A stretch of 64,000 nucleotides of DNA from Candidatus Multivoradales bacterium (GTDB taxonomy: Bacteria; Acidobacteriota; Thermoanaerobaculia; Multivoradales; JAHEKO01), in NCBI GenBank assembly GCA_965223755.1, contig CBDCXF010000002.1, positions 733,780 to 797,779 of the forward strand, given 5' to 3'. The notes beneath the pieces were generated by a model. It was not told where the DNA came from, ran no database searches, and saw only the letters and a program-made list of their open reading frames with translations. Positions 298 to 49,446 of this stretch are shown one piece after another (the first letter of the stretch is position 1; each line of letters starts with the position of its first letter). The translations under genes were made by a program, and so were the position numbers.

Positions 298-800
<503 letters not shown>

Positions 801-5363: not shown

Positions 5364-5458
5364 ACCCTATTGTAGATAGCCCCTACTGTAGAAAACCCCT
5401 ACCGTAGATAACCCTTACTGTAGATAACCCCTACTGTAGATAACCCAGACTGCGCAGA
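5364..5458. repeat. 16-bp tandem repeat (CCCCTACTGTAGATAA-like, ~6 copies) spanning the sulfatase stop codon
   Basis: ccctattgtagatag / cccctactgtagaaaa / cccctaccgtagataa / cccttactgtagataa / cccctactgtagataa / cccagactgcgcagac. Last 1.5 copies encode the C-terminal ...SLGYLQ* of the 5431..7848 gene. Period 16 puts TAG/TAA in all three frames. Confidence 0.7.
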
Positions 5459-7848
5459 CTCTCTGCTTCAGCGTCGCTCAAGGACTGTCCGAACTCAGCG
5501 TCGGAAGGCAACCGTCGACGCTCGGTTTCCGCCCGCCAGGCGTCGAGGTCGGCGGTGAGCGACGCGACGACGTCTTCATTTTCGCCAGCCACGTTGTTCT
5601 GGTCCAACGGATCGGCAGTGCGGTCGTAGAGTTCGGTGGAAACGACCTCGCCGTCCGGCCGTTGCTTGACAATCAGCTTCCATTCCGTGGTGCTCAGCGC
5701 CGACCAGTTGTATTGATCTTCCTCCTCGGACCGCACGTCTTCGGCAAACACCTCGGTGAACGCCGGCTGGGTGCGCAATGTCCGTTCGCCTCGAATCTCC
5801 GGTACCAAGCTCCGGCCCTGCGTCTGTTGCGGCAGCGGTAACCCGGAAAGTTCGAGCATTGTGGGCATCATGTCGATGGTCTGAGTCGGTCCCTCGAGGC
5901 GAACGCCCTCGGGGATGAACCCAGGCCCCCACATGATGAGAGGCACTTGATTGAGCTCTCCATACACCGTGTGGCCATGGAAATGCGCGTCGTGGTCAAG
6001 AAACTCGGTTCCGTGATCGGATACGAAGGCGACGATCACCTCGTCGCGCAAACCCCACTCCTCCAGGTTTGCAATCAGTTTTTGCAGTTCGTCGTCCATG
6101 CCCCGGATCGAGCCGTCATAAGCATCGAGTTCGTAGCCCACGTAGGCATCCGGATCCAATCCCGCTGCCTGGATCTCGTCGCGGCGTGGCATCCCGAACA
6201 CACGCATCAAAGGGGAATGCTCAATGAAGGGCCTCACCGCGTTCTGCTGACGCAAGTACTCCTCGACATCGCCGTCGGCACCGTAGAGATCGTCGTAGGG
6301 TTCATAGGGCTCGTACGGACTGTGCGGATCGGCAACGTGCAAGAAAGCAAAGAAGGGACTTTTGTGGCGGGGTTCGAGCCAGGACAGGAGGCGCTCGACC
6401 TGAATGCGGGCGGTCTTGGCCTTGGTGTTTTGCAACGACGACGACTCATACATGGTCTCGTAGCCTTGGTGCAGATTCGTAAACCGTCCGGTGAACGGAA
6501 TCGACGACAGCGCTAAGGTTGCGTAGCCGGCATCGCGGTAGATTTCGGCCATGGTCTGCGCCGCCGCCGGCAGGCGGTCGTGGAAGTTGGTGACCGTATG
6601 GCTGGAAGGGTACATCGAGGTGAACAGCGAGGTCACCGCCAGCTTGGTCCACGACGACTGCGAGATCGGATCCATGGCCACCGCTCCCTGCTCTGCCAAA
6701 GCCGTCAGCCCTGGAGCTGGATCTCGTTCGTAGCCATAGATGCCGAGATGATCGCGGCGCAGTGTGTCGGTCACCACCACGATGACGCCACGCGGCCCAG
6801 CGATTTCAGGAGTTCGCGACCGCACCACCGGAGCGCCCCACAGCCCCACTGGAGACCCCTCTCCTGCCGCTTCCAAGGACAAAGACAGGCGCACATCGCG
6901 ACCGGACCATTGCGAAAGGTCGACGGAGGTCGGCTCCCAGGTATCACCGACTTCGGGCGTCTGCGTCAAAACTTCCTCGGCCTCGCCCTCGTTCTTGCCA
7001 TCGCTTTCAATTGTCACCGCGAACCGAGCTGACGCCGCCCCCAACTGACTGAGGGCCAAATCGAGCCACGCATCCTTCGGTAGGGTCAGGTCATAGGCAA
7101 TTGTGTCCCCGACGCGGGCGACAATGGCTTCTTTGTAGATGTGTTGTACACCTTGCCAGGTGACCGTCGGCTCGGCCGCCAACAAACTGGCTCGGCGGTA
7201 GGTGATGCCCGCCGACTGCAGTGCAAAATCGCCGGCAGAGTCGGCCAGGCGCAAGACCAAAAAGGCCTCCCCATCGACTGGGACCTCGGTGGTCGCGGTC
7301 ATTACCACGTCTTGCCAGTCGTCACCGGCTTCAACCGAAGCCTGAAACGGCCACGGGAACACGCCTTCGATCGGCCCGCGCGGGCCGGAAGGAGGTTCGT
7401 CCATAACCCGCGCCGAGAGCTCGACAGCGCGGTCGCTCATCAGCCGCAGATGGATTTGGTGCAGCGTGTCACCGCCAGGAGGCCCTTCGATGGCGGCGTA
7501 GATCAATGGAAAGTCGTCGCTCGCGGAGCCGCGCAGGGCCGCATCCTCCACTTGCAAGCCGGCAACCCCCATTGCGGCATTCCAACTATCAGAGGCCGCA
7601 GATGTCCCCGAAAACTCCCACCGTGTGGATTGGCGGTCGGCGGGCTGTGTCTCGCCGTTGGCGAGTTCTGAAGTCACCGTTGCCTGCGGAAATAAATCCA
7701 CGAGGCTAACGGGATCCTGCGACGGAGGTCCGCCGCACGCGACCAAAGCCACAACTGCAACGACCAGACACCCCGCACGTAGATAACCAGCACCCAGATA
7801 ACCAGTACCCAGATAACCAAATTGGCCGAGACCAACTCGTTTGCTCAT
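5431..7848 (-). CDS. Sulfatase-like hydrolase/transferase (alkaline phosphatase superfamily) with ~330-aa N-terminal domain of unknown function, secreted/lipoprotein
   Basis: 805 aa. N-terminus MSKRVGLGQFGYLGTGYLGAGYLRAGCLVVAVVALVACG (signal/lipobox). Sulfatase-domain blocks VIVVVTDTLRRDHLGIYGY, SQSSWTKLAVTSLFTSMYPSSH (Ser-type, non-canonical S-x-W-x-K instead of C/S-x-P-x-R) and FVSDHGTEF. Confidence 0.65.
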   Translation of the reverse strand: MSKRVGLGQFGYLGTGYLGAGYLRAGCLVVAVVALVACGGPPSQDPVSLVDLFPQATVTSELANGETQPADRQSTRWEFSGTSAASDSWNAAMGVAGLQVEDAALRGSASDDFPLIYAAIEGPPGGDTLHQIHLRLMSDRAVELSARVMDEPPSGPRGPIEGVFPWPFQASVEAGDDWQDVVMTATTEVPVDGEAFLVLRLADSAGDFALQSAGITYRRASLLAAEPTVTWQGVQHIYKEAIVARVGDTIAYDLTLPKDAWLDLALSQLGAASARFAVTIESDGKNEGEAEEVLTQTPEVGDTWEPTSVDLSQWSGRDVRLSLSLEAAGEGSPVGLWGAPVVRSRTPEIAGPRGVIVVVTDTLRRDHLGIYGYERDPAPGLTALAEQGAVAMDPISQSSWTKLAVTSLFTSMYPSSHTVTNFHDRLPAAAQTMAEIYRDAGYATLALSSIPFTGRFTNLHQGYETMYESSSLQNTKAKTARIQVERLLSWLEPRHKSPFFAFLHVADPHSPYEPYEPYDDLYGADGDVEEYLRQQNAVRPFIEHSPLMRVFGMPRRDEIQAAGLDPDAYVGYELDAYDGSIRGMDDELQKLIANLEEWGLRDEVIVAFVSDHGTEFLDHDAHFHGHTVYGELNQVPLIMWGPGFIPEGVRLEGPTQTIDMMPTMLELSGLPLPQQTQGRSLVPEIRGERTLRTQPAFTEVFAEDVRSEEEDQYNWSALSTTEWKLIVKQRPDGEVVSTELYDRTADPLDQNNVAGENEDVVASLTADLDAWRAETERRRLPSDAEFGQSLSDAEAESLRSLGYLQ

Positions 7849-8141: not shown

Positions 8142-10007
8142 ATGTTTGGGAACCAGGTTACAAACACTATGAAGAAGGGGTTCGCGGGGGCCGTTTTGGG
8201 AATTGTTGTCCTCGCTTTTCCAACATCAGCGGATGAGTCGACTCTCGTCGATGCCGCTCGCGAGGTGGCCGAGAACGCCGGCTTCGTCACCTTGATCACT
8301 CAGGGCGATGATGGGCGGGCCAGGTCTCGCATTATGGATCCTCATCTTCCCGGCGAGAACTTCGTGGTGTGGATGGCGACCAACCCCCAAAGCCGCAAGG
8401 TGGAAGAGCTGCGCCGCGATCCTCGAGTGACTTTGCACTACTTTCAGGCCGATCCACCCGCCTACGTCACCTTGCACGGACGAGCCACGCTGGTCAACGA
8501 TGCTGAGGCCAAACTGAAGTACTGGAAAGAAGAATGGGCTCCTCACTGGCCCGATCGCGAGGAGTCGTTGCTGCTCATCCGCGTCGAACCCGAATGGTTG
8601 GAGGTCGTCGACCCAGCTAACGAAGTCTTCCCCGACCCGCAGACCTGGCAGCCGCAAGGTGTGGCCTTCGCGCCGCCCCAACTCGACCGCGTTCTTCTGC
8701 TAGGCGGCACCGTCCTCACCATGGATGGCGACGACACCACAATCGAAGACGGCGCGGTTGCGATTGAGCAAGGCGAGATCGTTGCCGTAGGTGAGCGCGA
8801 CGCAGTCACCACAGACTTCCACGCCGACCGAGTCATCGACGCCGACGGCGGTCTCATTCTGCCCGGACTCATCAACACCCACACCCACGTACCCATGACG
8901 CTTTTTCGCGGTCTCGCCGACGACCTACCCCTGATGGAATGGCTGCAGGAACACATCTTCCCAGCGGAGGCGGAGTTCGTAGACGAAGACTTCGTCCGCT
9001 TGGGCACGCAACTCGCCTGCGCCGAGATGCTGCGTTCGGGAACCACGACGGTTGTGGACATGTACTACTTCGAAAACGCCATTGCCGAGGAAGTGGACCG
9101 TTGCGGCATACGGGCGATCCTGGGGCAGACTCTGATCGACTTTCCGGCGCCGGACTACGCGACCTGGGACGAAGTGATGGCCGCGACCCGCGCGTTCGTC
9201 GAGACCTGGAGCGACCATCCACGAGTTATCCCTGCCGTAGCTCCCCACGCTCCCTATACGGTGTCACCCGAGCATCTGGTCGCCGCTCACGATCTGGCTG
9301 AAGAACTGGATGCGCCCTTCATGATTCACCTGGCGGAAGACCGCACCGAACTCGCAACCATCAACGAGCGCCACGGAACGACCCCGGTACGCCACCTCAA
9401 CCGACTCGGCATTCTCGAGGACCGCGTGCTCGCCGCCCACATGATCTGGCCGGACGGTGAAGAAATCGACCTCCTCGCCGCCAACGGGGTCGGTGTCGCC
9501 CACTGTCCGCAATCCAACATGAAGGTCGCAGCCGGCATTGCCCCGGTTCCGGAGATGCTGGCAGCAGGAGTGGCCGTCGGTTTGGGCACCGACGGTCCCG
9601 CCAGCAACAACGATCTCAACCTGTGGGAGGAGATGGATACCGCGGCCAAACTCCACAAAGTCGACGACAACGATCCAACGGTAGTGAGCGCTCGCCAGGC
9701 GTTACGCATGGCCACCATCGACGGAGCAAAGGCTCTCGACCTCGACCACCGTATCGGATCTCTGGAGGTCGGCAAGCGGGCCGATGTCATCGTCGTGGCA
9801 ACCGATGGCTTGCACCAGATTCCAGCCAGCGACCCGTACTCGACCCTGGTTTACGCCACCAAAGCGGCGGATGTGCGGACGGTGCTCGTTGACGGCAAGA
9901 TTGTGGTCGACAACAACCAAGTTCTGACTGTCGATCGTGAGGCGGTGGGAGCAGCGGCCAATTCGCTCCGCGATCGGATCGAACAGGCTCAATCGCAGGG
10001 AAATTAA
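8142..10007 (+). CDS. Fusion protein: N-terminal PNPOx-like (general stress protein 26 / pyridoxamine-5'-phosphate-oxidase fold) domain + C-terminal amidohydrolase of the MTA/SAH-deaminase (TRZ/ATZ) family, signal peptide
   Basis: Residues ~30-165 (ENAGFVTLITQGDDGRARSRIMDP...VVWMATNPQSRKVEELRRDPRVTLHY...LIRVEPEWLEV) resemble FMN-binding split-barrel GSP26 proteins. Residues ~185-610 carry LPGLINTHTHVPMT, HLAED, GTDGPASNN and EVGKRADVIVV amidohydrolase motifs. Alternative start ATG 8169 (MKKGFAGAVLGIVVLAFPTSA signal peptide). Confidence 0.7.
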   Translation: MFGNQVTNTMKKGFAGAVLGIVVLAFPTSADESTLVDAAREVAENAGFVTLITQGDDGRARSRIMDPHLPGENFVVWMATNPQSRKVEELRRDPRVTLHYFQADPPAYVTLHGRATLVNDAEAKLKYWKEEWAPHWPDREESLLLIRVEPEWLEVVDPANEVFPDPQTWQPQGVAFAPPQLDRVLLLGGTVLTMDGDDTTIEDGAVAIEQGEIVAVGERDAVTTDFHADRVIDADGGLILPGLINTHTHVPMTLFRGLADDLPLMEWLQEHIFPAEAEFVDEDFVRLGTQLACAEMLRSGTTTVVDMYYFENAIAEEVDRCGIRAILGQTLIDFPAPDYATWDEVMAATRAFVETWSDHPRVIPAVAPHAPYTVSPEHLVAAHDLAEELDAPFMIHLAEDRTELATINERHGTTPVRHLNRLGILEDRVLAAHMIWPDGEEIDLLAANGVGVAHCPQSNMKVAAGIAPVPEMLAAGVAVGLGTDGPASNNDLNLWEEMDTAAKLHKVDDNDPTVVSARQALRMATIDGAKALDLDHRIGSLEVGKRADVIVVATDGLHQIPASDPYSTLVYATKAADVRTVLVDGKIVVDNNQVLTVDREAVGAAANSLRDRIEQAQSQGN

Positions 10008-16338: not shown

Positions 16339-17364
16339 ATGAGGGTTGCTCGGTTCAACTTGCCATCTCTCTGTGCAGTCATCGCAGTTGGAGCCATCGT
16401 CGGTTGTGGATTGCAAGAAGGCAATGACGCTCCCTCTCCACAGTGGGTCTTTGAGGGCCCGACAATGGGAACAACCTACCGGGTTGTCGTACCCGTCGAT
16501 CGCGGAACGGAGTTCGACAAGGAGCAAATGGCAAGTTTGATCCAAGAAGCCCTCGATGATGTCGACGCGCGCATGTCGACATGGAAGCCAGACTCCGAAG
16601 TCTCCCGCTTCAATGCCACGCAGTCGACCGAGCCGTTTTCGGTGTCACAAGATGTGCTCAACGTCGTCGTGCGGGCCCAGGAAGTGGCTGAAGCCACGGG
16701 CGGCGCTTTCGACATCACCGCCGGGCCGTTGATTGACGCCTGGGGTTTCGGATCGGACGACAGCGAGCTTCCCAGTGAAGAACACCTGCAACAGATCGCA
16801 CAACGCGTCGGCTACCAGAAGCTCTTGGTCGACGCCGAAGCATCGACCCTGACAAAAGTGCACCCGGCTCTCGAAATCAACCTCTCCGCCATCGCCAAGG
16901 GCTACGGCGTCGATCGGGTTGCCGACGCTTTGCTCAGTACGGGTGTTCTCGACGCACTGATCGAGGTTGGCGGCGAGGTGCGGGCGCTCGGCCGGCCGCA
17001 AGCGGATCTCCGATGGCGCGTCGCCATCGAGCAACCGGACGGCTCCGGTGCAACGCAAAGGATCATCGAGCTCGAAGATCAAGCCCTGGCGACATCCGGG
17101 GATTACCGGAACTTCCGGCAACTCGAAGACGGTAGCTCGGTTTCGCATCTCCTCGACCCACGGCGGAAACGACCGATGCAACACCGAGGAGCCTCGGTCA
17201 GCGTCATCGCTGCCAATTGCACTAGTGCCGACGCGTGGGCGACCGCGCTATTTGTGCTCGGTCCGGATGAGTCTGAAGGTGCCATCCCCGGTGAGGTATC
17301 GGCTCTATTCGTTCTTCACCGTCCAGACGGTAGCTACTCCGAGAGCATGCTAGGCGCTTTCTGA
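16339..17364 (+). CDS. apbE: FAD:protein FMN transferase ApbE (flavinylates NqrB/NqrC), lipoprotein
   Basis: Start moved to internal ATG 16339 (MRVARFNLPSLCAVIAVGAIVGC lipobox). ApbE blocks GTTYRVVV, AIAKGYGVD, ATSGDYRNF, TSADAWATALFV. The 196-bp upstream leader is noncoding with several short hairpins. Confidence 0.85.
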   Translation: MRVARFNLPSLCAVIAVGAIVGCGLQEGNDAPSPQWVFEGPTMGTTYRVVVPVDRGTEFDKEQMASLIQEALDDVDARMSTWKPDSEVSRFNATQSTEPFSVSQDVLNVVVRAQEVAEATGGAFDITAGPLIDAWGFGSDDSELPSEEHLQQIAQRVGYQKLLVDAEASTLTKVHPALEINLSAIAKGYGVDRVADALLSTGVLDALIEVGGEVRALGRPQADLRWRVAIEQPDGSGATQRIIELEDQALATSGDYRNFRQLEDGSSVSHLLDPRRKRPMQHRGASVSVIAANCTSADAWATALFVLGPDESEGAIPGEVSALFVLHRPDGSYSESMLGAF

Positions 17365-17413
17365 CTGGGTGCTTTCTGACTAGACACTTTCTGACTGGGC
17401 ACTTTCTGAAGTT
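17354..17413. repeat. 15-bp direct repeat x4 (CTTTCTGA core) overlapping the apbE stop codon
   Basis: gcgCTTTCTGActgggt / gCTTTCTGActagaca / CTTTCTGActgggca / CTTTCTGAagttgg. First TGA (17362-17364) is the apbE stop. Followed by hairpin ggccgtcagatcggcc. Lies between convergent genes. Confidence 0.5.
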
Positions 17414-24771: not shown

Positions 24772-24929
24772 GACTGTCCTCGACTATAAGGTCGCCGTTG
24801 ACGAGTTTCGGTTCAATCTGGATCCAACTCGGCGCTACTTTCGTCCAGTGCCCGGCGAGTCTCTTAGGCGATCTGGCCCTTCGGGGTATAGTCGCATGGG
24901 CTCATTTGCTGTTGGAGGGATCCGCGAAC

Positions 24930-27900
24930 ATGCGCATCGTGAATTGTTGGTCGCTTAGTCGTCGCAGGGTTTCTCTGTGTTCTGCTGTCGTGCTCTCTTT
25001 TTCGCTCGCCGGAACAACACAGGCTCAGCCCACTCTTTCCAAGAGTTTCAATCCCACGACCATCGGCCCCGGATCGGTCGCCACCGCAACTTTCACCATC
25101 ACCAACGGTGGAGGCTCGCCGGTCTCCGAGATTGGTTTCATTGACAACCTGCCTGTTGTTCCCGGCCCATTGGTGATCGCCGACCCCGCCAACGCCTCGA
25201 CCACCTGCTCGTTTCGCGCTGGAGGAAGCCTGGTGGCTCCGGACGGAGGGTCCACGATCTCACTCAGCGGCGTCGAACTCGGGGCGGACCAGGCCTGCGT
25301 GGTCTCGGTGGATGTCACAGCCGCCACCCAGGGTATCCACACCAATCCTGCGATCACCTTGAACTCGAGCGCGGGAAGCAGCATGAGCCAGCCCACCGAC
25401 TTGACCGTAGCCACGAATCTCCCCGGCTTTTCGAAGAGTTTCGCTCCCAGCTCGATCGCTCGCGGGGACCGCAGCACCTTGACCTTTACCATCGACAATA
25501 GCCTCAATGCTTCACGGGTCGGCAACTTGGACTTTGTCGACAATCTGCCCGCTGGGGTCGTCGTCGCCGATCCCAACAACGCGTTCACCGACTGTGTCAG
25601 TGCCGGCGCCCCCAACTCGACGGTGACGGCGGTCCCTGGAACCGGCACCGTCGTACTGGACGCTAACGGCAGCACCTTCGTAGGATTCGAAGTCCTTGCT
25701 GTGGGAGCCGTCTGCACGGTCACAGTTGACGTGATCGGCAATGGCGTTGGGGACCTCGACAACGTCACCGATCAACTGCTCGTAGACTTCACAGCGGCCG
25801 GCAAAGCCAGCGACACCCTCGAAGTCACGGTGACGGCGTTGGCTCTCGACAAAGATTTTGCCGACGATCCGGTCGCCCCAGGTGACACGGTGACCCTCGA
25901 GTTCCAGGTTCACAACTTGGATCGCAATGAGGCGGCGACCGGTGTCGCCTTCAACGACGACCTCAGCAGTCTAGTGCCCGCTTTGCCTGGGCTCACCTTT
26001 AGCTCTCTGCTCTCGAATACCTGCGGCGGCTCGGTGACCGGTGTTGGCGGCACCTCCATCGGGTTCACCGGTGGCGCGCTGCCGGCTCAAGGATCGTGTT
26101 CGATTCAAGTCTCCCTCGCGGTACCCGCCGGGGCGGTCCCCGGCACCTACTCCAATACCACCAGCGCGATCACCGGCGACATCGGCGGATCGCCGACGGT
26201 CGGCAACATGGCTGCGGATGACCTTTTCGTCGAGCCGACGCCGGTCTTGACCAAAGAATTTCTCGCCACCGGCACCTTCGCTCCCGACCCGGTCGTGGTG
26301 CCGGGCGATGATGTGGTCCTGCGATTCACGATCACCAACGTCAGCACGACTTCCGGGGCAACCGACATCGCCTTTGGCGACGAACTGACCGACGGCGGCC
26401 CCGGCACCGGCTTTCTCCCCTTTCCAGTCACTATTTCGCTCCCACCGGTTCCGGATCCGCCCTGTGGCAATGGATCTTCTCTATCTTTGGTCAGTTTCGG
26501 CACCGATCGCCAAGGACTAATGTTGTCGGCAGGCAATTTGGCCGCCTCCCCGGGACCTGGTGATTCCTGCTCGTTCGATGTCACCCTATCCATTCCCTCC
26601 GATCTCACTCCTGGCGTCTATACCAATACAACCGAGGAAATCACCGCCACCGTCGACGGCGCTCAGCGCACCGGAGCCCCAGCGAGCGACACTTTGACCG
26701 TGGTCGCGGCGCCGAAGCTGACCAAGTCTTTCGTTGACGACCCCGTGGCACCCGGACAGACGGTAACTCTCGCCTTCAGCCTCACTCATTCCGCCAACTC
26801 GCCGGACTCTGCAACCGCGATCACCTTCACCGACGATCTGACGACGGTGCTGGCGGGAATGACCGCCAACCCACCGTCCAATCCCGATCCACCCTGTGGC
26901 GCTGGCTCCTCCTTGGTCGCCTCGGCCGGAAACACTTTGCTCACTCTGATGGATGGCGTACTGGCACCCGGTGAGAACTGCGCTTTCAGCATCACCCTCA
27001 ACGTGCCGATATCGGCTGTCGCCGGCACCTACTCCAATACCACCAGTGGAGTCCTCGCAACCGTCGCCGGTGAAGCGCGCGCTTCGCAACCGGCAAGCGA
27101 TGACCTCACCGTCTCCGGACTGACCTTTGCCAAGGAGTTCCTTGGCGACCCCTCTCTCCCCGGCGAAACAGTGACCCTACGCTTCGTCATCGACAATACG
27201 GCGTCTACCGACAATGCAACCGACATCGCCTTTACCGATGACCTCGCCGCCGTGTTGCCTGGCACCCCGGATCTCACCAGCACCGGTGCACCATCGGTGA
27301 ATACGTGTGGGGGGACACCGGGCGGATCGAGTACCTTTCTCATTTACAGCGGCGGCTCGCTGCTGGCCGGCCAAATGTGCACCATCGAATACGAAATTCT
27401 GATTCCCGCTGGGGCGGACGATGGCACCTTCAACAACACAACCAACACCATGACTGCGACGCAGGGCGGCGTCACCGTTCTCGTCGACCCCGCGACCGAT
27501 CTGTTGACCATCGATTCTGACCTGCTGTCCCTCTCCAAGGCCTTCATCGACGACCCGGTGGCCCCCGGTGACACCGTCACACTTGAGTTCACGCTCGCCA
27601 ACCTCGACGCCAGCAACGCGGCGACGGCGGTGGCGTTCACCGACGACCTCAACGCCGCATTGACCGGTCTGACGTTCGACGGTCTCGCGTTCAATGACTG
27701 TGGCGGCAGCGTCGGCGGCATCGCGACCCAGACCGTTTCGGTATCCGGGGTCACCATCGCCGCCGGGGCCTCATGCACGATTCGCGTCTTGCTGTCGGTT
27801 CCCGCCAACGCCGCCGCCGGCCTGTACACCAACACCACCAGCGACGTCACCGGCACGATCGGTGGGTTCGCCGTCTCCGGAAGTCCCGCCTCCGATGATC

Positions 27901-28910
27901 TGGAGGTCTTGAACTTGCTCTTGTTCAGCAAGTCTTTCGTAGCGACCAACACCAACAATGGCTATCCGTTGTTGAACTTCACCATCACCAACCCGGGACC
28001 CAATCCCGTCGCCGACCTTGCTTTTTCCGATGACCTCTCCGCCGTGTTTGCCAGCCTGACCGCAGTCGGGTTGCCGCTGAACGACATCTGCGGCGCTGGG
28101 TCGCAGATCGCGGGAACGCCCTTCCTGACCTTCACCGGTGGCAACCTGCCGCCCAGCGGAGGTACTTGTTCGTTTGACGTTCCGCTGGCAGTACAGGGTG
28201 CGGTGCCGGCAGGGAACTTCACCAACACCACCAGCGACCTGTTGCAGGCCGGATTGAAGGTCGCCGATCCCGCTACCGACAGCCTCACAGTGCAACCGCC
28301 CGCTTTCAGCAAAATATTTGTACCCGACAACGTTGTCCTCGGCGGCGTGAGCACCTTGACCTTCACCATTGACAATGTGAACTCGGTGTTTGCCGCTGAC
28401 AATCTCAGTTTCGTTGACAACCTCCCGTCGGGCACGCGCGTGGCCTCTCCGGCCAATGCCTCGACCACTTGCACGGGTGGAACGCTGACCGCATCGCCCG
28501 GCAGCACCGCGGTCAGTTACGCCGGCGGCACGGTGGCCGCGGGAGCGAGCTGTGAAGTCGAGGTCGACATTGTGGCCAACAGTCTCGGCATCCGCATCAA
28601 CACCACCGACATCCTGATGTCCTCGCTCGGAATGAGCGCCGCTGCCACCGATCTGCTGTTCGTGTCTGGACCGGGCCCGTGCTTTGCCAACGACGGCGAG
28701 TTCCTGCAGCTCCAAAACGGAGCCGTCACCGACAACCAAGCCTACGAAGTGTGCAACACCATCCTGGTGGCGCCCGACTTCGTCGTCTTCGGCTCCGGTG
28801 GCTCTCTGAATCTGACCGCAGGCCTCGCAGTGGTGTTTCAGAACGGCTTCGAAATCCTGCCCGGCGGCGAACTCTCGGTGAGTCTTGACGCAGGCCTGCT
28901 CAACGACTGA
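24930..28910 (+). CDS. Giant secreted repeat protein made of ~12 DUF11 ('conserved repeat domain') modules, probable surface/adhesin protein
   Basis: Start at internal ATG 24930 (ggaggg RBS; MRIVNCWSLSRRRVSLCSAVVLSFSLAGTTQA signal peptide). Recurrent ~110-aa modules of type LxKxFxDDPVAPGDTVTLEF(T/Q)xxN...ATxVAFTDDL...CGG...C. 1,326 aa. Confidence 0.75.
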   Translation: MRIVNCWSLSRRRVSLCSAVVLSFSLAGTTQAQPTLSKSFNPTTIGPGSVATATFTITNGGGSPVSEIGFIDNLPVVPGPLVIADPANASTTCSFRAGGSLVAPDGGSTISLSGVELGADQACVVSVDVTAATQGIHTNPAITLNSSAGSSMSQPTDLTVATNLPGFSKSFAPSSIARGDRSTLTFTIDNSLNASRVGNLDFVDNLPAGVVVADPNNAFTDCVSAGAPNSTVTAVPGTGTVVLDANGSTFVGFEVLAVGAVCTVTVDVIGNGVGDLDNVTDQLLVDFTAAGKASDTLEVTVTALALDKDFADDPVAPGDTVTLEFQVHNLDRNEAATGVAFNDDLSSLVPALPGLTFSSLLSNTCGGSVTGVGGTSIGFTGGALPAQGSCSIQVSLAVPAGAVPGTYSNTTSAITGDIGGSPTVGNMAADDLFVEPTPVLTKEFLATGTFAPDPVVVPGDDVVLRFTITNVSTTSGATDIAFGDELTDGGPGTGFLPFPVTISLPPVPDPPCGNGSSLSLVSFGTDRQGLMLSAGNLAASPGPGDSCSFDVTLSIPSDLTPGVYTNTTEEITATVDGAQRTGAPASDTLTVVAAPKLTKSFVDDPVAPGQTVTLAFSLTHSANSPDSATAITFTDDLTTVLAGMTANPPSNPDPPCGAGSSLVASAGNTLLTLMDGVLAPGENCAFSITLNVPISAVAGTYSNTTSGVLATVAGEARASQPASDDLTVSGLTFAKEFLGDPSLPGETVTLRFVIDNTASTDNATDIAFTDDLAAVLPGTPDLTSTGAPSVNTCGGTPGGSSTFLIYSGGSLLAGQMCTIEYEILIPAGADDGTFNNTTNTMTATQGGVTVLVDPATDLLTIDSDLLSLSKAFIDDPVAPGDTVTLEFTLANLDASNAATAVAFTDDLNAALTGLTFDGLAFNDCGGSVGGIATQTVSVSGVTIAAGASCTIRVLLSVPANAAAGLYTNTTSDVTGTIGGFAVSGSPASDDLEVLNLLLFSKSFVATNTNNGYPLLNFTITNPGPNPVADLAFSDDLSAVFASLTAVGLPLNDICGAGSQIAGTPFLTFTGGNLPPSGGTCSFDVPLAVQGAVPAGNFTNTTSDLLQAGLKVADPATDSLTVQPPAFSKIFVPDNVVLGGVSTLTFTIDNVNSVFAADNLSFVDNLPSGTRVASPANASTTCTGGTLTASPGSTAVSYAGGTVAAGASCEVEVDIVANSLGIRINTTDILMSSLGMSAAATDLLFVSGPGPCFANDGEFLQLQNGAVTDNQAYEVCNTILVAPDFVVFGSGGSLNLTAGLAVVFQNGFEILPGGELSVSLDAGLLND

Positions 28911-37404: not shown

Positions 37405-38433
37405 ATGAAAGGTCGAGGAAGCGCCACCAACCCAGCTAGTCGATTTGATCGGCTGCAGGTGCAATGGGAAATCCCACCGCCGGATCGGGAACCGACTCAG
37501 TTTCTGGTTGACGCCAGCAAAACAGTCATCGCCACCAACTCCAGCCCCGACGTCGGGTTTGACGCTTCCATCAACCCCTATCGAGGATGCGAGCATGGTT
37601 GCAGTTATTGCTACGCTCGCAATACTCACGAGTACTTGGGGTTCTCGGCTGGCCTTGATTTCGAGACCCGTATCTTGGTCAAACAAAATGCCCCTGAATT
37701 GCTGCGCAGGGAACTGGCGTCTCCCAAATGGAAGCCCACGCCACTCGGCATGTGCGGGGTCACGGATCCTTATCAGCCGGTCGAGCGCAAGCTCGAAATC
37801 ACCCGACGATCTCTCGAGGTGTTAGCCGAAGCTCGCAATCCGGTGATGCTGGTGACCAAAAACCACCTCGTAACTCGGGACATCGATCACCTGACCGAAC
37901 TTGCCCGGCACAACTGCGTCGCGGTGACGATATCGATTCCCAGTCTCGACCCCCACTTGACCCGCATCATGGAACCTCGGGCTTCTCATCCGCGCGACCG
38001 AATCAAGGCGATTGCTGAACTCAGTCGGGCGGGGATTCCCAGCGCGGTCAACATCGCACCACTGATTCCCGGACTTACCGACCACGAAATTCCAAGCATC
38101 CTCAAGTCTGCTGCCGAGGCCGGTGCCACTCGCGCCAACTACATACTGCTCAAACTTCCGGGCGCGGTAAGGGGCCTGTTCGTTTCCTGGTTGGAAGAAC
38201 ACTTCCCCGACCGCAAAGACAAAGTCCTGTCTCGAGTTCGCCAACTGCGTCGAGGAAAACTCAATAGCTCCGACTTCGCGACCCGCGGTCGCGGAGAGGG
38301 ACATCTCGCCAAGGAGCTACACGAGTTCTTCGAAATCCACAGGAAGAGAGCTGGGCTGGAAAAAGGGGCTCCCTTTTTGTCGACGGAGTCTTTCCGTCGA
38401 CCGGAGTTGGAGCAGAAGAGATTGTTTGACTAG
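37405..38433 (+). CDS. Radical SAM protein of the SplB / PA0069 (DNA-repair-photolyase-like) family
   Basis: Start at internal ATG 37405. CxxxCxxC cluster region PYRGCEHGCSYCYARNTHEYLGF. Conserved blocks VTDPYQP, NPVMLVTKN, ANYILLKLPGAVRGLF. Immediately downstream (divergent) of the SOS mutagenesis operon. Confidence 0.75.
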   Translation: MKGRGSATNPASRFDRLQVQWEIPPPDREPTQFLVDASKTVIATNSSPDVGFDASINPYRGCEHGCSYCYARNTHEYLGFSAGLDFETRILVKQNAPELLRRELASPKWKPTPLGMCGVTDPYQPVERKLEITRRSLEVLAEARNPVMLVTKNHLVTRDIDHLTELARHNCVAVTISIPSLDPHLTRIMEPRASHPRDRIKAIAELSRAGIPSAVNIAPLIPGLTDHEIPSILKSAAEAGATRANYILLKLPGAVRGLFVSWLEEHFPDRKDKVLSRVRQLRRGKLNSSDFATRGRGEGHLAKELHEFFEIHRKRAGLEKGAPFLSTESFRRPELEQKRLFD

Positions 38434-38477
38434 TGGTTAGTGGTTAGTGGTTAGTGGTTAGTGGTTAGTGGTTAGTG
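38431..38477. repeat. (TGGTTAG)x6 heptanucleotide microsatellite beginning on the radical-SAM stop codon
   Basis: TAG TGGTTAG TGGTTAG TGGTTAG TGGTTAG TGGTTAG TGGTTAG TG. Period 7 gives TAG in all three forward frames and TAA in all three reverse frames (CTAACCA). Confidence 0.8.
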
Positions 38478-47118: not shown

Positions 47119-47134
47119 GCACTCGGTCCAGGAT

Positions 47135-47548
47135 ATGAGCAAGCACAGCCTGAACGCTGCCGCAGCTCTTTTGATGGCGGGGGTCGCTTTTGCCAACGAA
47201 ACTACTGAGTTTTTTCTCACCGCCGACGACTACGCAGCAGCAGGACAACTCGACGACACCAACTTAGCCTCGTTGGTCAAGAATGGAGCCGTCGATCCGC
47301 ACTGGGTCGGCGATTCGATCTGGTACCGACGTGACGAGGGAGACGGACATTCCGTTGTCATGGTGGACGCAGATAGTGGCACTCGAAGGGCACCGTTCGA
47401 CATTGCTGCAATGGCCGAAGAACTTGAGCCGCTGGTCAACACCGAGGCCGATCACTTGGTCACAATGCCTGAACAAATCGCTCTTGAGCCCGACGGATAT
47501 ACGGTCAAGTATCGGCACGCAGGGCGCGGGATCGTCTGCACAGGCTGA
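47135..47548 (+). pseudogene. 137-aa fragment resembling the N-terminal region of an S9-family (DPP-IV-like) peptidase, probably a truncated gene remnant
   Basis: Signal peptide then ...DYAAAGQLDDTNLASLVKNGAVDPHWVGDSIWYRRDEGDGHSVVMVDADSGTRRAPFD, reminiscent of the start of bacterial DPP-IV N-terminal beta-propeller domains. Full-length proteins are ~700 aa. ORF stops 75 nt before tRNA-Ser. Confidence 0.35.
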
Positions 47549-47622
47549 ATCCCCCGATTTAAAGTCAGAGTTCTCCGACCCAAGGCCGATCACAAACAAG
47601 AACCGGCTATGATCCGCAGCCC

Positions 47623-47712
47623 GGAGGGGTGGCTGAGTGGTCGAAAGCACTGGTCTTGAAAACCAGCGACGGTGCAAGCCGTCCGCGGGTTCGAATCCCG
47701 CCCCCTCCGCCA
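47623..47712 (+). tRNA. tRNA-Ser (anticodon UGA), long variable arm
   Basis: GGAGGGG/CCCCTCC acceptor stem, G discriminator, CCA 47710-47712. Anticodon stem CTGGT/ACCAG with loop CTTGAAA (TGA). T-arm GCGGGTTCGAATCCCGC. 90 nt. Confidence 0.85.
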
Positions 47713-48130
47713 ACTGCCAACAGCAGTTGGCGCTATGGGGCGGGATTCTGGGACATCGCTCGCTACCGCGAGCTCAGGTCGCGAATCCTCTGACTCTCGT
47801 TCAGCGCCGATGCGAGCGGGAGGCATTCTGACAAGCAGTTCGCTCACGCGAACTGGGAACGAATCCCGCTGTTCTTCGCCAGCCCGCCGCCCCAGTTGGC
47901 GCTATGGGGCGGGATTCTGGGACATCGCTCGCTACCGCGAGCTCAGGTCGCCAATCCCCTGACTCTCGTTCAGCGCCGATGCGAGCGGGAGGCATTCTGA
48001 CAAGCAGTTCGCTCACGCGAACTGGGAACGAATCCCGCTGTTCTTCGCCAGCCCGCCACCCCAGTTGGCGCTATGGGGCGGGATTCTGGGGCATCGCTCG
48101 CTACCGCGAGCTCAGGTCACGAATCCCCTA
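47713..48130. repeat. Tandem array (~2.4 copies, period 169 bp) of a two-hairpin structured repeat immediately 3' of tRNA-Ser(UGA)
   Basis: Unit starts 47724, 47893, 48062. Each unit has hairpin 1 GGGATTCTGGGACATCGCTCGCtaccGCGAGCTCAGGTCGCGAATCC and hairpin 2 GGCATTCTGACAAGCAGTTCGCtcacGCGAACTGGGAACGAATCCC. Hairpin 2 is homologous to the repeat at 390-800. Confidence 0.8.
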
Positions 48131-48210
48131 CTCGCTACCATTGACGCTCAGCGACGCGAGCAAGTACAGCTCCAGCAAGTAACTCACTATCGGTCTTCTC
48201 GACTATAGCC

Positions 48211-48239
48211 TTGCAATTACCAATAGATGTTCTAGTATC
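48211..48239 (+). promoter_or_regulatory. Candidate sigma70 promoter of the aro-trp operon (TTGCAA-N17-TAGTAT)
   Basis: -35 TTGCAA 48211-48216, -10 TAGTAT 48234-48239, in the only AT-rich stretch (48130-48250) between the repeat array and the leader ORF. Predicted start ~48246 would make the leader peptide mRNA nearly leaderless. Confidence 0.35.
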
Positions 48240-48248
48240 CTGCTCTCG

Positions 48249-48305
48249 ATGACGATTTTAGCCCTCCTACGCACGACCTCTGGAGCTTGGTGGTGGCCCA
48301 ATTAG
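48249..48305 (+). CDS. trpL: Tryptophan operon leader peptide (18 aa, three consecutive Trp codons)
   Basis: ATG ACG ATT TTA GCC CTC CTA CGC ACG ACC TCT GGA GCT TGG TGG TGG CCC AAT TAG = MTILALLRTTSGAWWWPN*. Followed by alternative hairpins and an intrinsic terminator directly upstream of the DAHP synthase-trpEGDCFBA genes. Confidence 0.6.
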   Translation: MTILALLRTTSGAWWWPN

Positions 48306-48350
48306 GCGGGCCGCTGGCTGTAGTCATCTAAGAAACAAATCAGACCAACC

Positions 48351-48383
48351 GAGCCCGCCGATCCGGCGGGCTTTTTGTTTGTT
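48351..48383 (+). terminator. Attenuator terminator (3:4 hairpin + U-tract) of the trp leader
   Basis: GCCCGCCG-atc-CGGCGGGC followed by TTTTTGTTTGTT. The 3' arm sequence GGCGGGC also occurs at 48305-48311 just after the leader stop, able to pair with the 5' arm (antiterminator 2:3). GGCCC (48295-99) / GGGCC (48308-12) can form a 1:2 pause hairpin. Confidence 0.65.
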
Positions 48384-48429
48384 GGTGCCCGCCTGGGTCC
48401 GGGCTCTTTTGATTCAAAGGAGCTCGATC

Positions 48430-49446
48430 GTGATCATCATTCTCAAACCTGACACCGGCCCGGAGGTGGCCGAGGAACTGATGGCTCGCATTGAAGCCGA
48501 GGGCTGCCGGCCGCTGCACATGCCGGGCAGCGAGCGGGTGGTTCTTGGAGCGCTGGGCGACGAGCGCGTACTCGAGCGGCTGCACCTCGGCAGCCACCCA
48601 GCCGTCGAACAGGTCAAGCGAGTTCTTGCCCCCTATCAGTTGGTCAGCCGTGAAGCCCACCCACAGGATTCGGTGGTCAAGATTGGCGACGTATTGGTGG
48701 GAGGCGGAGCGTTCATGGTCGTTGCCGGCCCCTGTGCGGTCGAGAGTCTCGATCAATTGCAGCGAACCGCCGAAGCGGTGAGTGAAGCCGGGGGCCACGC
48801 CTTGCGCGGGGGCGCGTTCAAACCCCGCACCAGTCCCTACAGTTTTCAAGGCCTTGGCGTCGAGGGCCTCAAGATTCTGCAGCAGGTCTCGTCCGAGACT
48901 TCGCTGCCGACAGTGACCGAAGTGGTCGAAGTCCAGGATGTCGACGATGTCGAGGACCACGCCGATTGCTTCCAAATCGGCACCCGCAATATGCAGAACT
49001 TCCGCCTCCTCAAAGCAGTGGGCAAAAGTTCCAAACCGGTGATCCTCAAGCGCGGCATGGCGGCCAAACTCGACGACCTCTTGTTGGCCGCGGAATACAT
49101 CGTCAGCGAGGGCAATCCCCAGGTGATCCTGTGTGAGCGTGGCATCCGCACCTTCGAAACGGCGATGCGCAACACCCTCGATCTAGCCGCCGTTCCCTAC
49201 CTCAAGCAGCGCACCCACCTGCCCGTATTCGTCGATCCCTCTCACGGTACCGGCCTGCGCGAGCTGGTCTTGCCGACCGCCCTGGGAGCCGCCGCGGTTG
49301 GTGCCGACGGCCTCATCGTCGAGGTCCATCATGATCCCGGCGAAGCGCTATCCGATGGTCGCCAGTCCCTTTATCCAGAACAGTTCAGCGAGCTGATGGA
49401 GGCCCTCATACCTCTGCTCGCCTCTTTGGGTCGGAGGTTGGCGTGA
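48430..49446 (+). CDS. 3-deoxy-D-arabino-heptulosonate-7-phosphate (DAHP) synthase, type I-beta with N-terminal regulatory (ACT/ferredoxin-like) domain
   Basis: GTG 48430 preceded by AAGGAG 8 nt upstream (the longer ORF from 48379 would read through the terminator). Catalytic TIM barrel blocks VVAGPCAVES, GGAFKPRTSPYSFQGLG, KRGMAAK, GLIVEVHHDP. Also related to KDO8P synthases. Confidence 0.85.
   Translation: MIIILKPDTGPEVAEELMARIEAEGCRPLHMPGSERVVLGALGDERVLERLHLGSHPAVEQVKRVLAPYQLVSREAHPQDSVVKIGDVLVGGGAFMVVAGPCAVESLDQLQRTAEAVSEAGGHALRGGAFKPRTSPYSFQGLGVEGLKILQQVSSETSLPTVTEVVEVQDVDDVEDHADCFQIGTRNMQNFRLLKAVGKSSKPVILKRGMAAKLDDLLLAAEYIVSEGNPQVILCERGIRTFETAMRNTLDLAAVPYLKQRTHLPVFVDPSHGTGLRELVLPTALGAAAVGADGLIVEVHHDPGEALSDGRQSLYPEQFSELMEALIPLLASLGRRLA

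Follow-up and report, generated by a model that had tools for sequence, protein, structure and literature searches.

Tandem hairpin arrays behind two tRNA-Ser genes of a Multivoradales genome: probable RtT-type trailer repeats with arms cognate to the adjacent tRNA

The window analyzed here is a 64,000-nt stretch of the genome of a Candidatus Multivoradales bacterium (Acidobacteriota; assembly GCA_965223755.1, contig CBDCXF010000002.1, positions 733,780 to 797,779). It contains only two tRNA genes according to ARAGORN and Rfam, both for tRNA-Ser and both on the plus strand, and each is followed by a tandem array of hairpins. We focused on the array behind tRNA-Ser(UGA). The outer arms of its hairpins correspond to a segment of the T-arm of the adjacent tRNA and an inverted copy of that segment, and the array is probably a structure-constrained trailer repeat, templated by the tRNA, of the type known from RtT RNA of Escherichia coli. 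The features of this locus are as follows; h1 and h2 are the two hairpin types, R1 is a covariance model of the hairpin, and R2 is a second model described below.

47623-47712, plus strand: tRNA-Ser(UGA), the anchor gene (ARAGORN; Rfam tRNA, 64.8 bits), with the T-arm GCGGG-TTCGAAT-CCCGC
47713-47727, plus strand: small hairpin ACTGC-CAACA-GCAGT immediately 3' of the CCA (sequence; RNAfold)
47724-48133, plus strand: tandem array, 169-bp unit, 2.4 copies, 97% matches (Tandem Repeats Finder [TRF])
47738-47792, plus strand: h1, first copy, GCGGGATTC ... GCTCGC-TACC-GCGAGC ... CGAATCC (R1, 48.1 bits, E = 4.5e-8; fold z = -2.95)
47818-47871, plus strand: h2, first copy, GCGGGAGGCATTCTGACAAGCAG-TTCGC-TCAC-GCGAA-CTGGGAACGAATCCCGC (R1, 57.6 bits; fold z = -4.07)
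47860-47881, plus strand: degenerate copy of the tRNA 3' end from T-loop to CCA (local alignment), sharing sequence with the 3' arm of h2; a second copy lies at 48029-48050
47907-47961, plus strand: h1, second copy, with the 3' arm decayed to CCAATCC (R1, 41.9 bits)
47987-48040, plus strand: h2, second copy (R1, 57.6 bits; R2, 46.8 bits)
48076-48130, plus strand: h1, third copy, in the last partial unit (R1, 51.1 bits)

The initial annotation of this locus, made from the sequence alone, had described a two-hairpin unit of 169 bp, present in 2.4 copies behind tRNA-Ser(UGA), and TRF and ARAGORN gave the same picture; the hairpin sequences that it quoted were present as described in both arrays. 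TRF also detected an inner period of ~80 bp (62% matches), indicating that the unit is composed of two diverged half-units, h1 and h2. The repeat register reaches into the 3' end of the real tRNA, from position 47705 (family D3 of the repeat search). The small hairpin directly behind the CCA is part of the tRNA trailer, and the array repeats without copies of it; in the relative L006 it is kept with one more pair (ACTGCC-AGC-GGCAGT). No open reading frame (ORF) overlapping the arrays had a Pfam match, and the ORFs running across the repeats were treated as artefacts.

The sister array lies behind the other tRNA gene, near the start of the window.

298-389, plus strand: tRNA-Ser(GCU), anchor of the sister array (ARAGORN; Rfam, 55.5 bits), with the T-arm GAGGG-TTCGAAT-CCCTC
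420-790, plus strand (417-795 with the hairpins included): sister array, 109-bp unit, 3.4 copies, 86% matches (TRF)
417-472, 525-577, 631-686 and 740-795, plus strand: the four hairpins of the sister array (R1, 59.7-70.2 bits)

The second of these hairpins has a different inner stem that is paired equally well (ACGCGC-ATCC-GCGCGT). The first hairpin begins 26-28 nt past the CCA in both arrays of the window, and 25-30 nt past it in relatives.

The claim that the two arrays are homologous was upheld by a leave-one-locus-out test. Model R2, which was built from hairpins of the tRNA-Ser(GCU) loci of four genomes only, matched h2 of the tRNA-Ser(UGA) array at 47818-47869 and 47987-48038 (46.8 bits, E = 1.5e-8), and the detection of h2 by a model of the other locus argues for common descent. 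R2 also scored 40.1 bits on the unit at the UGA locus of a relative; its matches to the h1 copies, of which there are three, were weaker (24.2, 19.1, and 15.4 bits; E = 0.003 to 0.35). With up to two mismatches, GGGAACGAATCCC occurs 12 times in the window against 2.75 expected, and the pattern GGATTCTG..GAATCC occurs four times, in the two arrays exclusively, against 0.03 expected. The z scores of folding were -2.7 to -5.1 for single hairpins and about -4 for entire arrays.

We aligned 17 hairpins from both loci of four genomes over 62 columns. The two-helix structure pairs in 87% of the cells, compared with 23-46% when the 3' partners are slid. In the outer helix (eight pairs), 84% of the positions are paired; in the inner helix, both sides change in eight of ten pairs, e.g., TTGTGC/GCACAA in the window and in L011 versus TTGCGC/GCGCAA in L012. 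The covariation score was reached by none of 500 shuffles. Thus, the inner stems differ in sequence and stay paired, as had been noticed initially by eye, and this comparison indicates that the hairpin is under structural constraint and that the arrays are not due to chance.

The frame GGGATTC...CGAATCCC had been regarded as an independent motif, but it consists of the 3' half of the tRNA T-loop and the 3' strand of the T-stem together with their inverted copy. In detail, the 3' arm of the hairpin is CGAATCCC plus one nucleotide; CGAATCCC with a following G or T forms the arm of the outer stem and pairs with its inverted copy upstream. The 5' arm is the exact inverted copy of the 3' arm (GAGGGATTC or GCGGGATTC). 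It is not a direct copy of the 5' strand of the T-stem, because the extra A of GGGATTC (compared with GGGTTC) would be unexpected there. The arms are specific to the cognate tRNA. Behind tRNA-Ser(GCU) they read GAGGGATTC...GAATCCCT, with the cognate AGGG/CCCT (T-stem GAGGG/CCCTC); behind tRNA-Ser(UGA) they read GCGGGATTC...GAATCCCGC, with the cognate CGGG/CCCG (T-stem GCGGG/CCCGC); and behind a tRNA-Gln of the relative L136 they carry the cognate GCAGGG/CCCTGC.

Within the window, the exact part of the tRNA copy is limited to CGAATCCC plus the cognate base. In the tRNA-Ser(UGA) array the copy runs on in decayed form to a pseudo-3' end, CGAATCCCGCTGTTCTTCGCCA (compared with CGAATCCCGC-CCCCTCCGCCA of the tRNA), and retains a degenerate ...CTTCGCCA; its local alignment to the tRNA gave p = 0.036 (2000 shuffles), and that of the tRNA-Ser(GCU) array to its own tRNA 3' end gave p = 0.19. 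Smith-Waterman comparison of whole tRNAs with the units of the window was marginal (p = 0.04-0.3). The derivation from the tRNA is therefore based on the cognate bases and on relatives, whose units end in an exact or near-exact copy of 17-23 nt of the tRNA 3' end: 17 nt repeated exactly in L007, 18/20 in L135, and 23/23, from T54 to the CCA, at both the tRNA-Ser and the tRNA-Gln locus of L136 (p <= 0.0005 in each). In all nine loci examined, the best match to the tRNA begins at T-loop position 0-6. An origin of the inner stem from the variable arm, and of the 5' flank from the anticodon arm, lines up by eye with marginal p values, and we do not claim it.

Relatives were found via the proteins flanking the two loci, the closest named homologues of which belong to metagenome-assembled genomes of Acidobacteriota, Thermoanaerobaculia, and Gemmatimonadota (~65-70% identity). 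The hairpin is conserved behind tRNA-Ser in these relatives, in line with the class of element proposed initially. Their neighbourhood is syntenic (aldehyde dehydrogenase / tRNA-Ser(GCU) / Wzy_C / transketolase), and an array is present behind tRNA-Ser(GCU) in four of them.

L011: 91-bp unit, 2.9 copies, plus degenerate copies
L012: 160-bp unit, 2.8 copies, two hairpin types in alternation
L013: tail of an array at the contig end
L135 (a more distant relative): 98-bp unit, 2.4 copies, overlapping the last 20 nt of the tRNA

Behind tRNA-Ser(UGA), L007 carries a single unit, and L006 carries one long hairpin with the same arms and no array. The copy number among relatives ranges from 1 to 5 and the unit length from 91 to 169 bp (91, 98, 109, 160, and 169).

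R1 gave 19 forward matches with E < 1e-5 in 203 kb, each of them located 25-30 nt past the CCA of a tRNA-Ser, on the strand of the tRNA, and no significant R1 match was found away from tRNA 3' ends in these 203 kb and 44 kb more of the clade (~250 kb in total, from the window and five relatives). R1 also had no match in 711 kb from 125 unrelated control loci. Of these controls, 120 carry a tRNA-Ser with a 29-nt 3' end identical to that of the GCU tRNA; they came from a metagenome scan with this 29-nt T-arm/acceptor sequence and belong to unrelated taxa. The corresponding scan with a 60-nt tRNA-Ser(UGA) pattern gave no match. The absence of matches from the control loci points to a lineage-specific hairpin family. 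The exact motif of the a and h2 hairpins (ATTCTGNCAAGC..GGRAACGAATC) had five single matches in 185,579 species-representative genomes, where ~4 are expected by chance, and none was linked to a tRNA.

Copy number and unit length vary in every genome and the units are homogenised within arrays, as in a neutral minisatellite. In that case, a chance duplication of the tRNA 3' end would have expanded by slippage, and the hairpins would be an unconstrained echo of the palindromic T-arm. We consider this improbable, since one and the same tRNA has kept its array in genomes with transketolase identities of only 69-75%, covariation of the inner helix is far above that of both controls (shuffled and slid), changes of the cognate 3' arm among three tRNAs are followed by the 5' arm, and the spacing of 25-30 nt from the CCA is constant.

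The third of these tRNAs is found in L136, which comes from the same sample series and has a genome of 5 Mb, and in which tRNA-Ser(GCU) is followed by one module and an array lies nearby behind tRNA-Gln(CUG).

5925-6341 of L136, minus strand: tRNA-Gln(CUG) array, 160-bp unit, 2.6 copies, 3.3 kb from tRNA-Ser(GCU)

Its complete units end in 23/23 and 22/23 copies of the tRNA-Gln 3' end and also carry the inverted cognate arm. The interior of these units is the same as that of the tRNA-Ser module of this genome (GCGAGCGC-GGAG-GCGCTCGC ... CAGTTCGyCACGrAGTGyGC), and the arms, GCAGGGATTCGAA and TTCGAATCCCTGCCTCCCAGCCA, are those specific to tRNA-Gln. The association with tRNA genes put forward in the initial annotation therefore stands, with no scattered copies in the ~250 kb, whereas its restriction to tRNA-Ser or to tRNAs with a long arm does not: the class is tied to tRNA 3' ends. 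A GC-rich hairpin, GAAGCGGCCGGCGTCCCTGCCGGCCG, also recurs in the tRNA-Gln and tRNA-Ser trailers of L136 (minus strand, ~9440-9470, 6290-6320, 6130-6160, and 5970-6000).

The same combination is seen in the window, where the interior and flanks of h2 (TTCTGnCAAGCA...TGGGAACGAATC) are of the tRNA-Ser(GCU) array type and the outermost bases are specific to tRNA-Ser(UGA). These alignments indicate that module interiors are common to several tRNA loci, with arms copied at each locus from its own tRNA, and that the junction is in the T-loop. In flank identity, h2 of the window is nearest to the tRNA-Ser(GCU) hairpins of its own genome, and the unit of L007 is nearest to the L012 hairpins of type c, from the same contig; in these two genomes, the flanks of the loci of one genome are more alike than those of different genomes. 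This is suggestive, for two genomes only, of sequence exchange between loci ~50 kb apart.

A duplicated segment that starts in the T-loop is also what tyrosine integrases leave behind, as the T-loop is a classic crossover sublocation. Partial tRNA genes are a common by-product of integration (PMC9897764, which cites Reiter 1989 and Williams 2002). The units could accordingly be functionless scars of site-specific integration, i.e., attR fragments that accreted and lost their integrase. The exact direct repeat of 17-23 nt in L007 and L136 would agree with this, as would the variable gene content distal to the arrays: tRNA-Ser(UGA) is separated from the trp operon by 5.4 kb in L006, and three extra genes precede Wzy_C in L012 and L013. 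Nevertheless, we regard integration scars as unlikely. No integrase-family Pfam domain was found in the array-adjacent genes of the window or in the genes called at any of the fetched loci. The units are just 91-169 bp long and 86-97% identical in tandem, with 60-150 bp between the copies of the tRNA 3' end. An attR site would keep the whole uninterrupted T-arm and would lack the inverted cognate arm seen 35-90 nt upstream, and integration accounts neither for the covariation of the hairpin across genomes nor for a common interior behind different tRNAs with both arms cognate. Matches in phage, plasmid, and viral collections were at chance level: blastn against plasmids and phages gave no match, the specific motif had no match in viral contigs, and the generic outer-stem pattern had eight matches there, all in apparent coding sequence and with neither the inner hairpin nor an adjacent tRNA.

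Serial insertion of a miniature mobile element with the T-loop or 3' end of a tRNA gene as its target, similar to a miniature inverted-repeat transposable element (MITE), a repetitive extragenic palindromic (REP) sequence, or a palindrome-associated transposable element (PATE), would account for the common interior at the tRNA-Ser and tRNA-Gln loci of L136, the genome-specific flanks common to both loci, the inverted-repeat termini, and the exchange of an entire inner stem among neighbouring units (unit a2 of the sister array). We have little confidence in this explanation, because both arms are copied from the cognate tRNA and thus are not borne by an element, and the spacers repeat at high identity as well, as in tandem duplication. 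Moreover, no copy away from tRNA 3' ends was seen in the ~250 kb, there is no ordinary target-site duplication, the species-representative genomes and the phage, plasmid, and viral collections contained chance-level matches only, and no RAYT- or TnpA-type transposase gene occurs in the neighbourhoods. DDE genes were seen 6-7 kb from the tRNA of L011 and ~0.9 kb beyond tRNA-Gln of L136, just past the array, and nowhere else.

We thus propose that the array is a trailer repeat of RtT type. The core of the unit is a partial copy of the 3' part of the adjacent tRNA, starting inside the T-loop and including the cognate T-stem bases; in the less decayed units of relatives, it goes on through the 3' strand of the acceptor stem and the CCA. 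An inverted copy upstream pairs with this direct copy and closes a hairpin around a short, variable, well-paired inner stem. The real tRNA 3' end and the downstream copy form a direct repeat; jointly with TTCGAATCC, a T-loop sequence that is near-universal among tRNAs, it may supply the homology needed for both unequal crossing-over and gene conversion between tRNA loci. Such recombination would expand and contract the arrays, accounting for the range of copy number and unit length among relatives, homogenise their units, and shift module interiors among tRNA loci; as the exchange junction would fall in the T-loop, the distal part would always remain cognate. The T-loop may be a recombination anchor able to shuffle sequence among tRNA loci.

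The array is presumably co-transcribed with the tRNA and may serve this strongly transcribed gene in cis, by 3'-end formation and insulation. This specific function is about half as probable as the reading of the array as an RtT-type repeat. The hairpins, which alternate with C-rich spacers, could block exonucleases, be sites of processing, or offer entry tracts to a Rho-type factor, and small stable RNAs might be freed, by analogy with RtT of E. coli. The next gene is a convergent Wzy_C-family gene at the tRNA-Ser(GCU) locus and the attenuator-controlled aro-trp operon at the tRNA-Ser(UGA) locus, and a consensus scan detected no canonical terminator between either tRNA and the next gene. In the 40 nt past the hairpins, C exceeds G in 15 of 19 cases (mean +4.3); these units are not independent, and the C-rich spacers are too weak a hint of Rho utilisation to count as evidence.

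Alternatively, the hairpins may belong to an exchange system targeted to the T-loop, with crossover in TTCGAATCC, in which recombination guided by hairpins, as in attC sites, copies or moves modules and stacks them behind tRNAs. The common interior with cognate arms, the likeness of flanks within one genome, and the swapped inner stem suggest this. In addition or instead, freed hairpin RNAs that mimic the T-arm or 3' end could act in trans and modulate tRNA processing, modification, or starvation signalling, in the way once proposed for RtT. We regard these possibilities, separately or together, as rather remote.

Several points weigh against the trailer-repeat reading. The whole inner stem is exchanged between the neighbouring units a2 and a3, which are otherwise ~95% identical, and this looks more like cassette replacement than stepwise compensatory change; templated "palindrome correction" can keep inner palindromes perfect without selection. 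The similarity of units to the tRNA is marginal when the window alone is considered (p = 0.036 for UGA and 0.19 for GCU, as above), and the linkage to tRNA genes was seen over about 250 kb of one clade only. Co-transcription, processing, and a role as terminator or insulator are inferences. Finally, the resemblance to RtT is one of architecture and not demonstrated homology, since the covariance models of the two families do not match each other's loci. The anatomy, position, and orientation of the hairpins, their covariation, the cognate arms, and the similarity between loci do establish a real and conserved hairpin family.

Downstream of the tRNA-Ser(UGA) array, the leader of the aro-trp operon noted in the initial annotation is real in outline, comprising a leader peptide and a terminator hairpin.

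48249-48379: tryptophan attenuator upstream of the DAHP-synthase/trpEGD... operon
48249-48305: leader peptide MTILALLRTTSGAWWWPN, 18 codons with three consecutive Trp codons
48351-48373: terminator of the attenuator, hairpin plus U-tract (terminator scan)

The Rfam Trp_leader model scored 31.4 bits here, below its threshold of 41, and L006 has a similar leader with WWW at ~9825-9902. The junction between tRNA-Ser(UGA) and the operon, which had been suspected of rearrangement, indeed differs in every relative examined: 5.4 kb of other genes separate the two in L006, the tRNA is inverted and 2.2 kb away in L007, and the upstream gene is rpsT in L008. The "truncated peptidase" reported at this site was not confirmed, as the ORF at 47132-47548 had no Pfam match; this ORF ends ~75 nt before tRNA-Ser(UGA) and has no counterpart upstream of the tRNA in L006. 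Elsewhere in the window, other repeats are present: a tandem 16-bp repeat at 5365-5446 (CCCTACTGTAGATAAC, 5.1 copies, 87% matches), an intergenic tandem 15-bp repeat at 17350-17409 (GGCACTTTCTGACTG, 3.8 copies, alternatively 30 bp in two copies), and a perfect heptamer repeat at 38431-38477 (TAGTGGT, 6.7 copies). An ORF of 1370 aa at 24798-28910 contains internal DNA repeats ~390-450 bp apart (families D5 and D8) and probably encodes a repetitive surface protein.

Several known systems were compared with the arrays. A CRISPR (clustered regularly interspaced short palindromic repeats) array was rejected, as the "spacers" themselves repeat at 86-97% identity. A tRNA or tRNA pseudogene was rejected because ARAGORN and Rfam report just the two genuine tRNAs, even at E <= 10, and an intrinsic terminator was rejected because the consensus scan of the arrays gave weak 5-bp stems only. 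At a permissive threshold, Rfam detected only weak echoes of the tRNA itself (sX4, tmRNA_permuted, plastid 3'UTR). Weak matches to sX4 (RF02223) span the tRNA and trailer at 47615-47745 of the window (27 bits) and at 8212-8409 of L096, one of the control contigs (32 bits), compared with a threshold of 70 bits. The sX4 consensus has a tRNA-like 3' end with a C-run that is paired to a G-run further downstream, and sX4 may likewise represent a tRNA-trailer element of broadly this type.

REP sequences, the bacterial interspersed mosaic elements (BIMEs) that contain them, and MITEs are likewise short imperfect palindromes between genes, sometimes in tandem clusters, and are thought to affect mRNA 3' ends. 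They are dispersed over hundreds of intergenic sites, however, whereas the present family was found, in the ~250 kb of its clade and the control loci, at tRNA 3' ends only and has arms copied from the tRNA. The attC arrays of integrons offer an analogy only: they too are arranged head to tail beside a fixed anchor, with conserved outer arms and a variable paired interior. An integron was rejected for lack of its defining features, as there are no R''/R' cores (RYYYAAC/GTTRRRY), no ORFs, and no intI nearby; attC cassettes are unique, whereas the spacers here are near-identical copies. The partial tRNA genes at attR/attL sites share with the arrays a direct repeat of the tRNA 3' part from the T-loop and a variable distal gene content. 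They differ from the arrays, which have no integrase and no kb-scale insert and are made of 91-169-bp tandem units; integration also leaves unexplained the inverted cognate arm of the arrays and their covarying inner stem.

The closest known system is RtT RNA (RF00391), encoded by repeats distal to tyrT/tyrV in E. coli (the rttR/tpr region), so the arrays do have a precedent. For more than 40 years RtT has been an orphan curiosity of the tyrT operon. Egan and Landy are said to have described the 178-bp repeat in 1978, and Rossi et al. reportedly placed Rho-dependent termination inside it in 1981. A processed rtT RNA with a possible link to the stringent response was reportedly described by Bosl and Kersten in 1991. 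The processed RNA and this possible link are mentioned in bioRxiv 10.1101/2024.07.17.603846. In the tyrT-tyrV region, we found 3.1 copies of a 178-bp repeat, overlapping the tRNA 3' end, with four RF00391 matches (133-138 bits). The outer helix of the RF00391 consensus is formed by GGGGAAGGAU, which pairs with AUCCUUCCCC of a copy of the tRNA-Tyr 3' end that continues into CACCACCA. RtT and the arrays of the window are thus alike in following a tRNA gene immediately, in tandem and on its strand, and in having an outer helix of a tRNA 3'-end copy and an inverted copy upstream. In RtT, a tRNA 3'-end copy that starts in the T-loop terminates each unit, and exact or near-exact counterparts exist in the relatives studied here; the acceptor/CCA part of this copy is decayed in the window. 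As a further likeness, the outer helix of RtT encloses internal hairpins, and a C-rich tail follows it. The present units are shorter and have one hairpin of 50 nt every 80-109 bp. The host, which is of another phylum (Acidobacteriota-like), and the tRNAs differ as well (Ser, and Gln in a relative, instead of Tyr). RF00391 had no match in the window at its gathering score of 45 bits, nor any at E <= 10 over 47550-48450 and 250-900, and R1 had no match at the tyrT-tyrV locus; homology to RtT was not detectable at the level of plain sequence either.

An RtT-like design was also found in two of the 109 control tRNA-Ser loci with at least 300 nt downstream.

L096, 8318-8640 (unrelated metagenome contig): 126-bp unit, 2.5 copies, behind tRNA-Ser(GCU)
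L074, 7248-8000 (AT-rich metagenome contig): three to four modules of ~190 nt behind tRNA-Ser

The complete units of L096 have Ser-specific arms and terminate in a tRNA 3'-end copy that is exact or nearly so (exact over 19 nt in the first). Their interior has a 34-nt stretch, CCCGAAGGGCGAGGCGCGCAGCGCCGAGTAATCC, in common with RtT of E. coli, and the locus scored 34 bits with RF00391, below the threshold of 45. The modules of L074 start with GGGATTCGAA (inverted T-arm) and end with GAATCCCTCCCTCTCCGC (copy of the tRNA 3' end). L096 suggests that RtT-like elements are not limited to tRNA-Tyr. With the design present in an uncultured Acidobacteriota-like clade, and with parallels in design behind tRNA-Ser in two unrelated contigs, the single case of E. 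coli becomes a recurring class open to comparative study. For annotation, tandem repeats that start in the T-loop of an upstream tRNA would then be read as trailer modules rather than as integration scars or new mobile elements, and the arrays of the window are best filed among tRNA-distal repeats of RtT type, as a variant not homologous to RtT itself.

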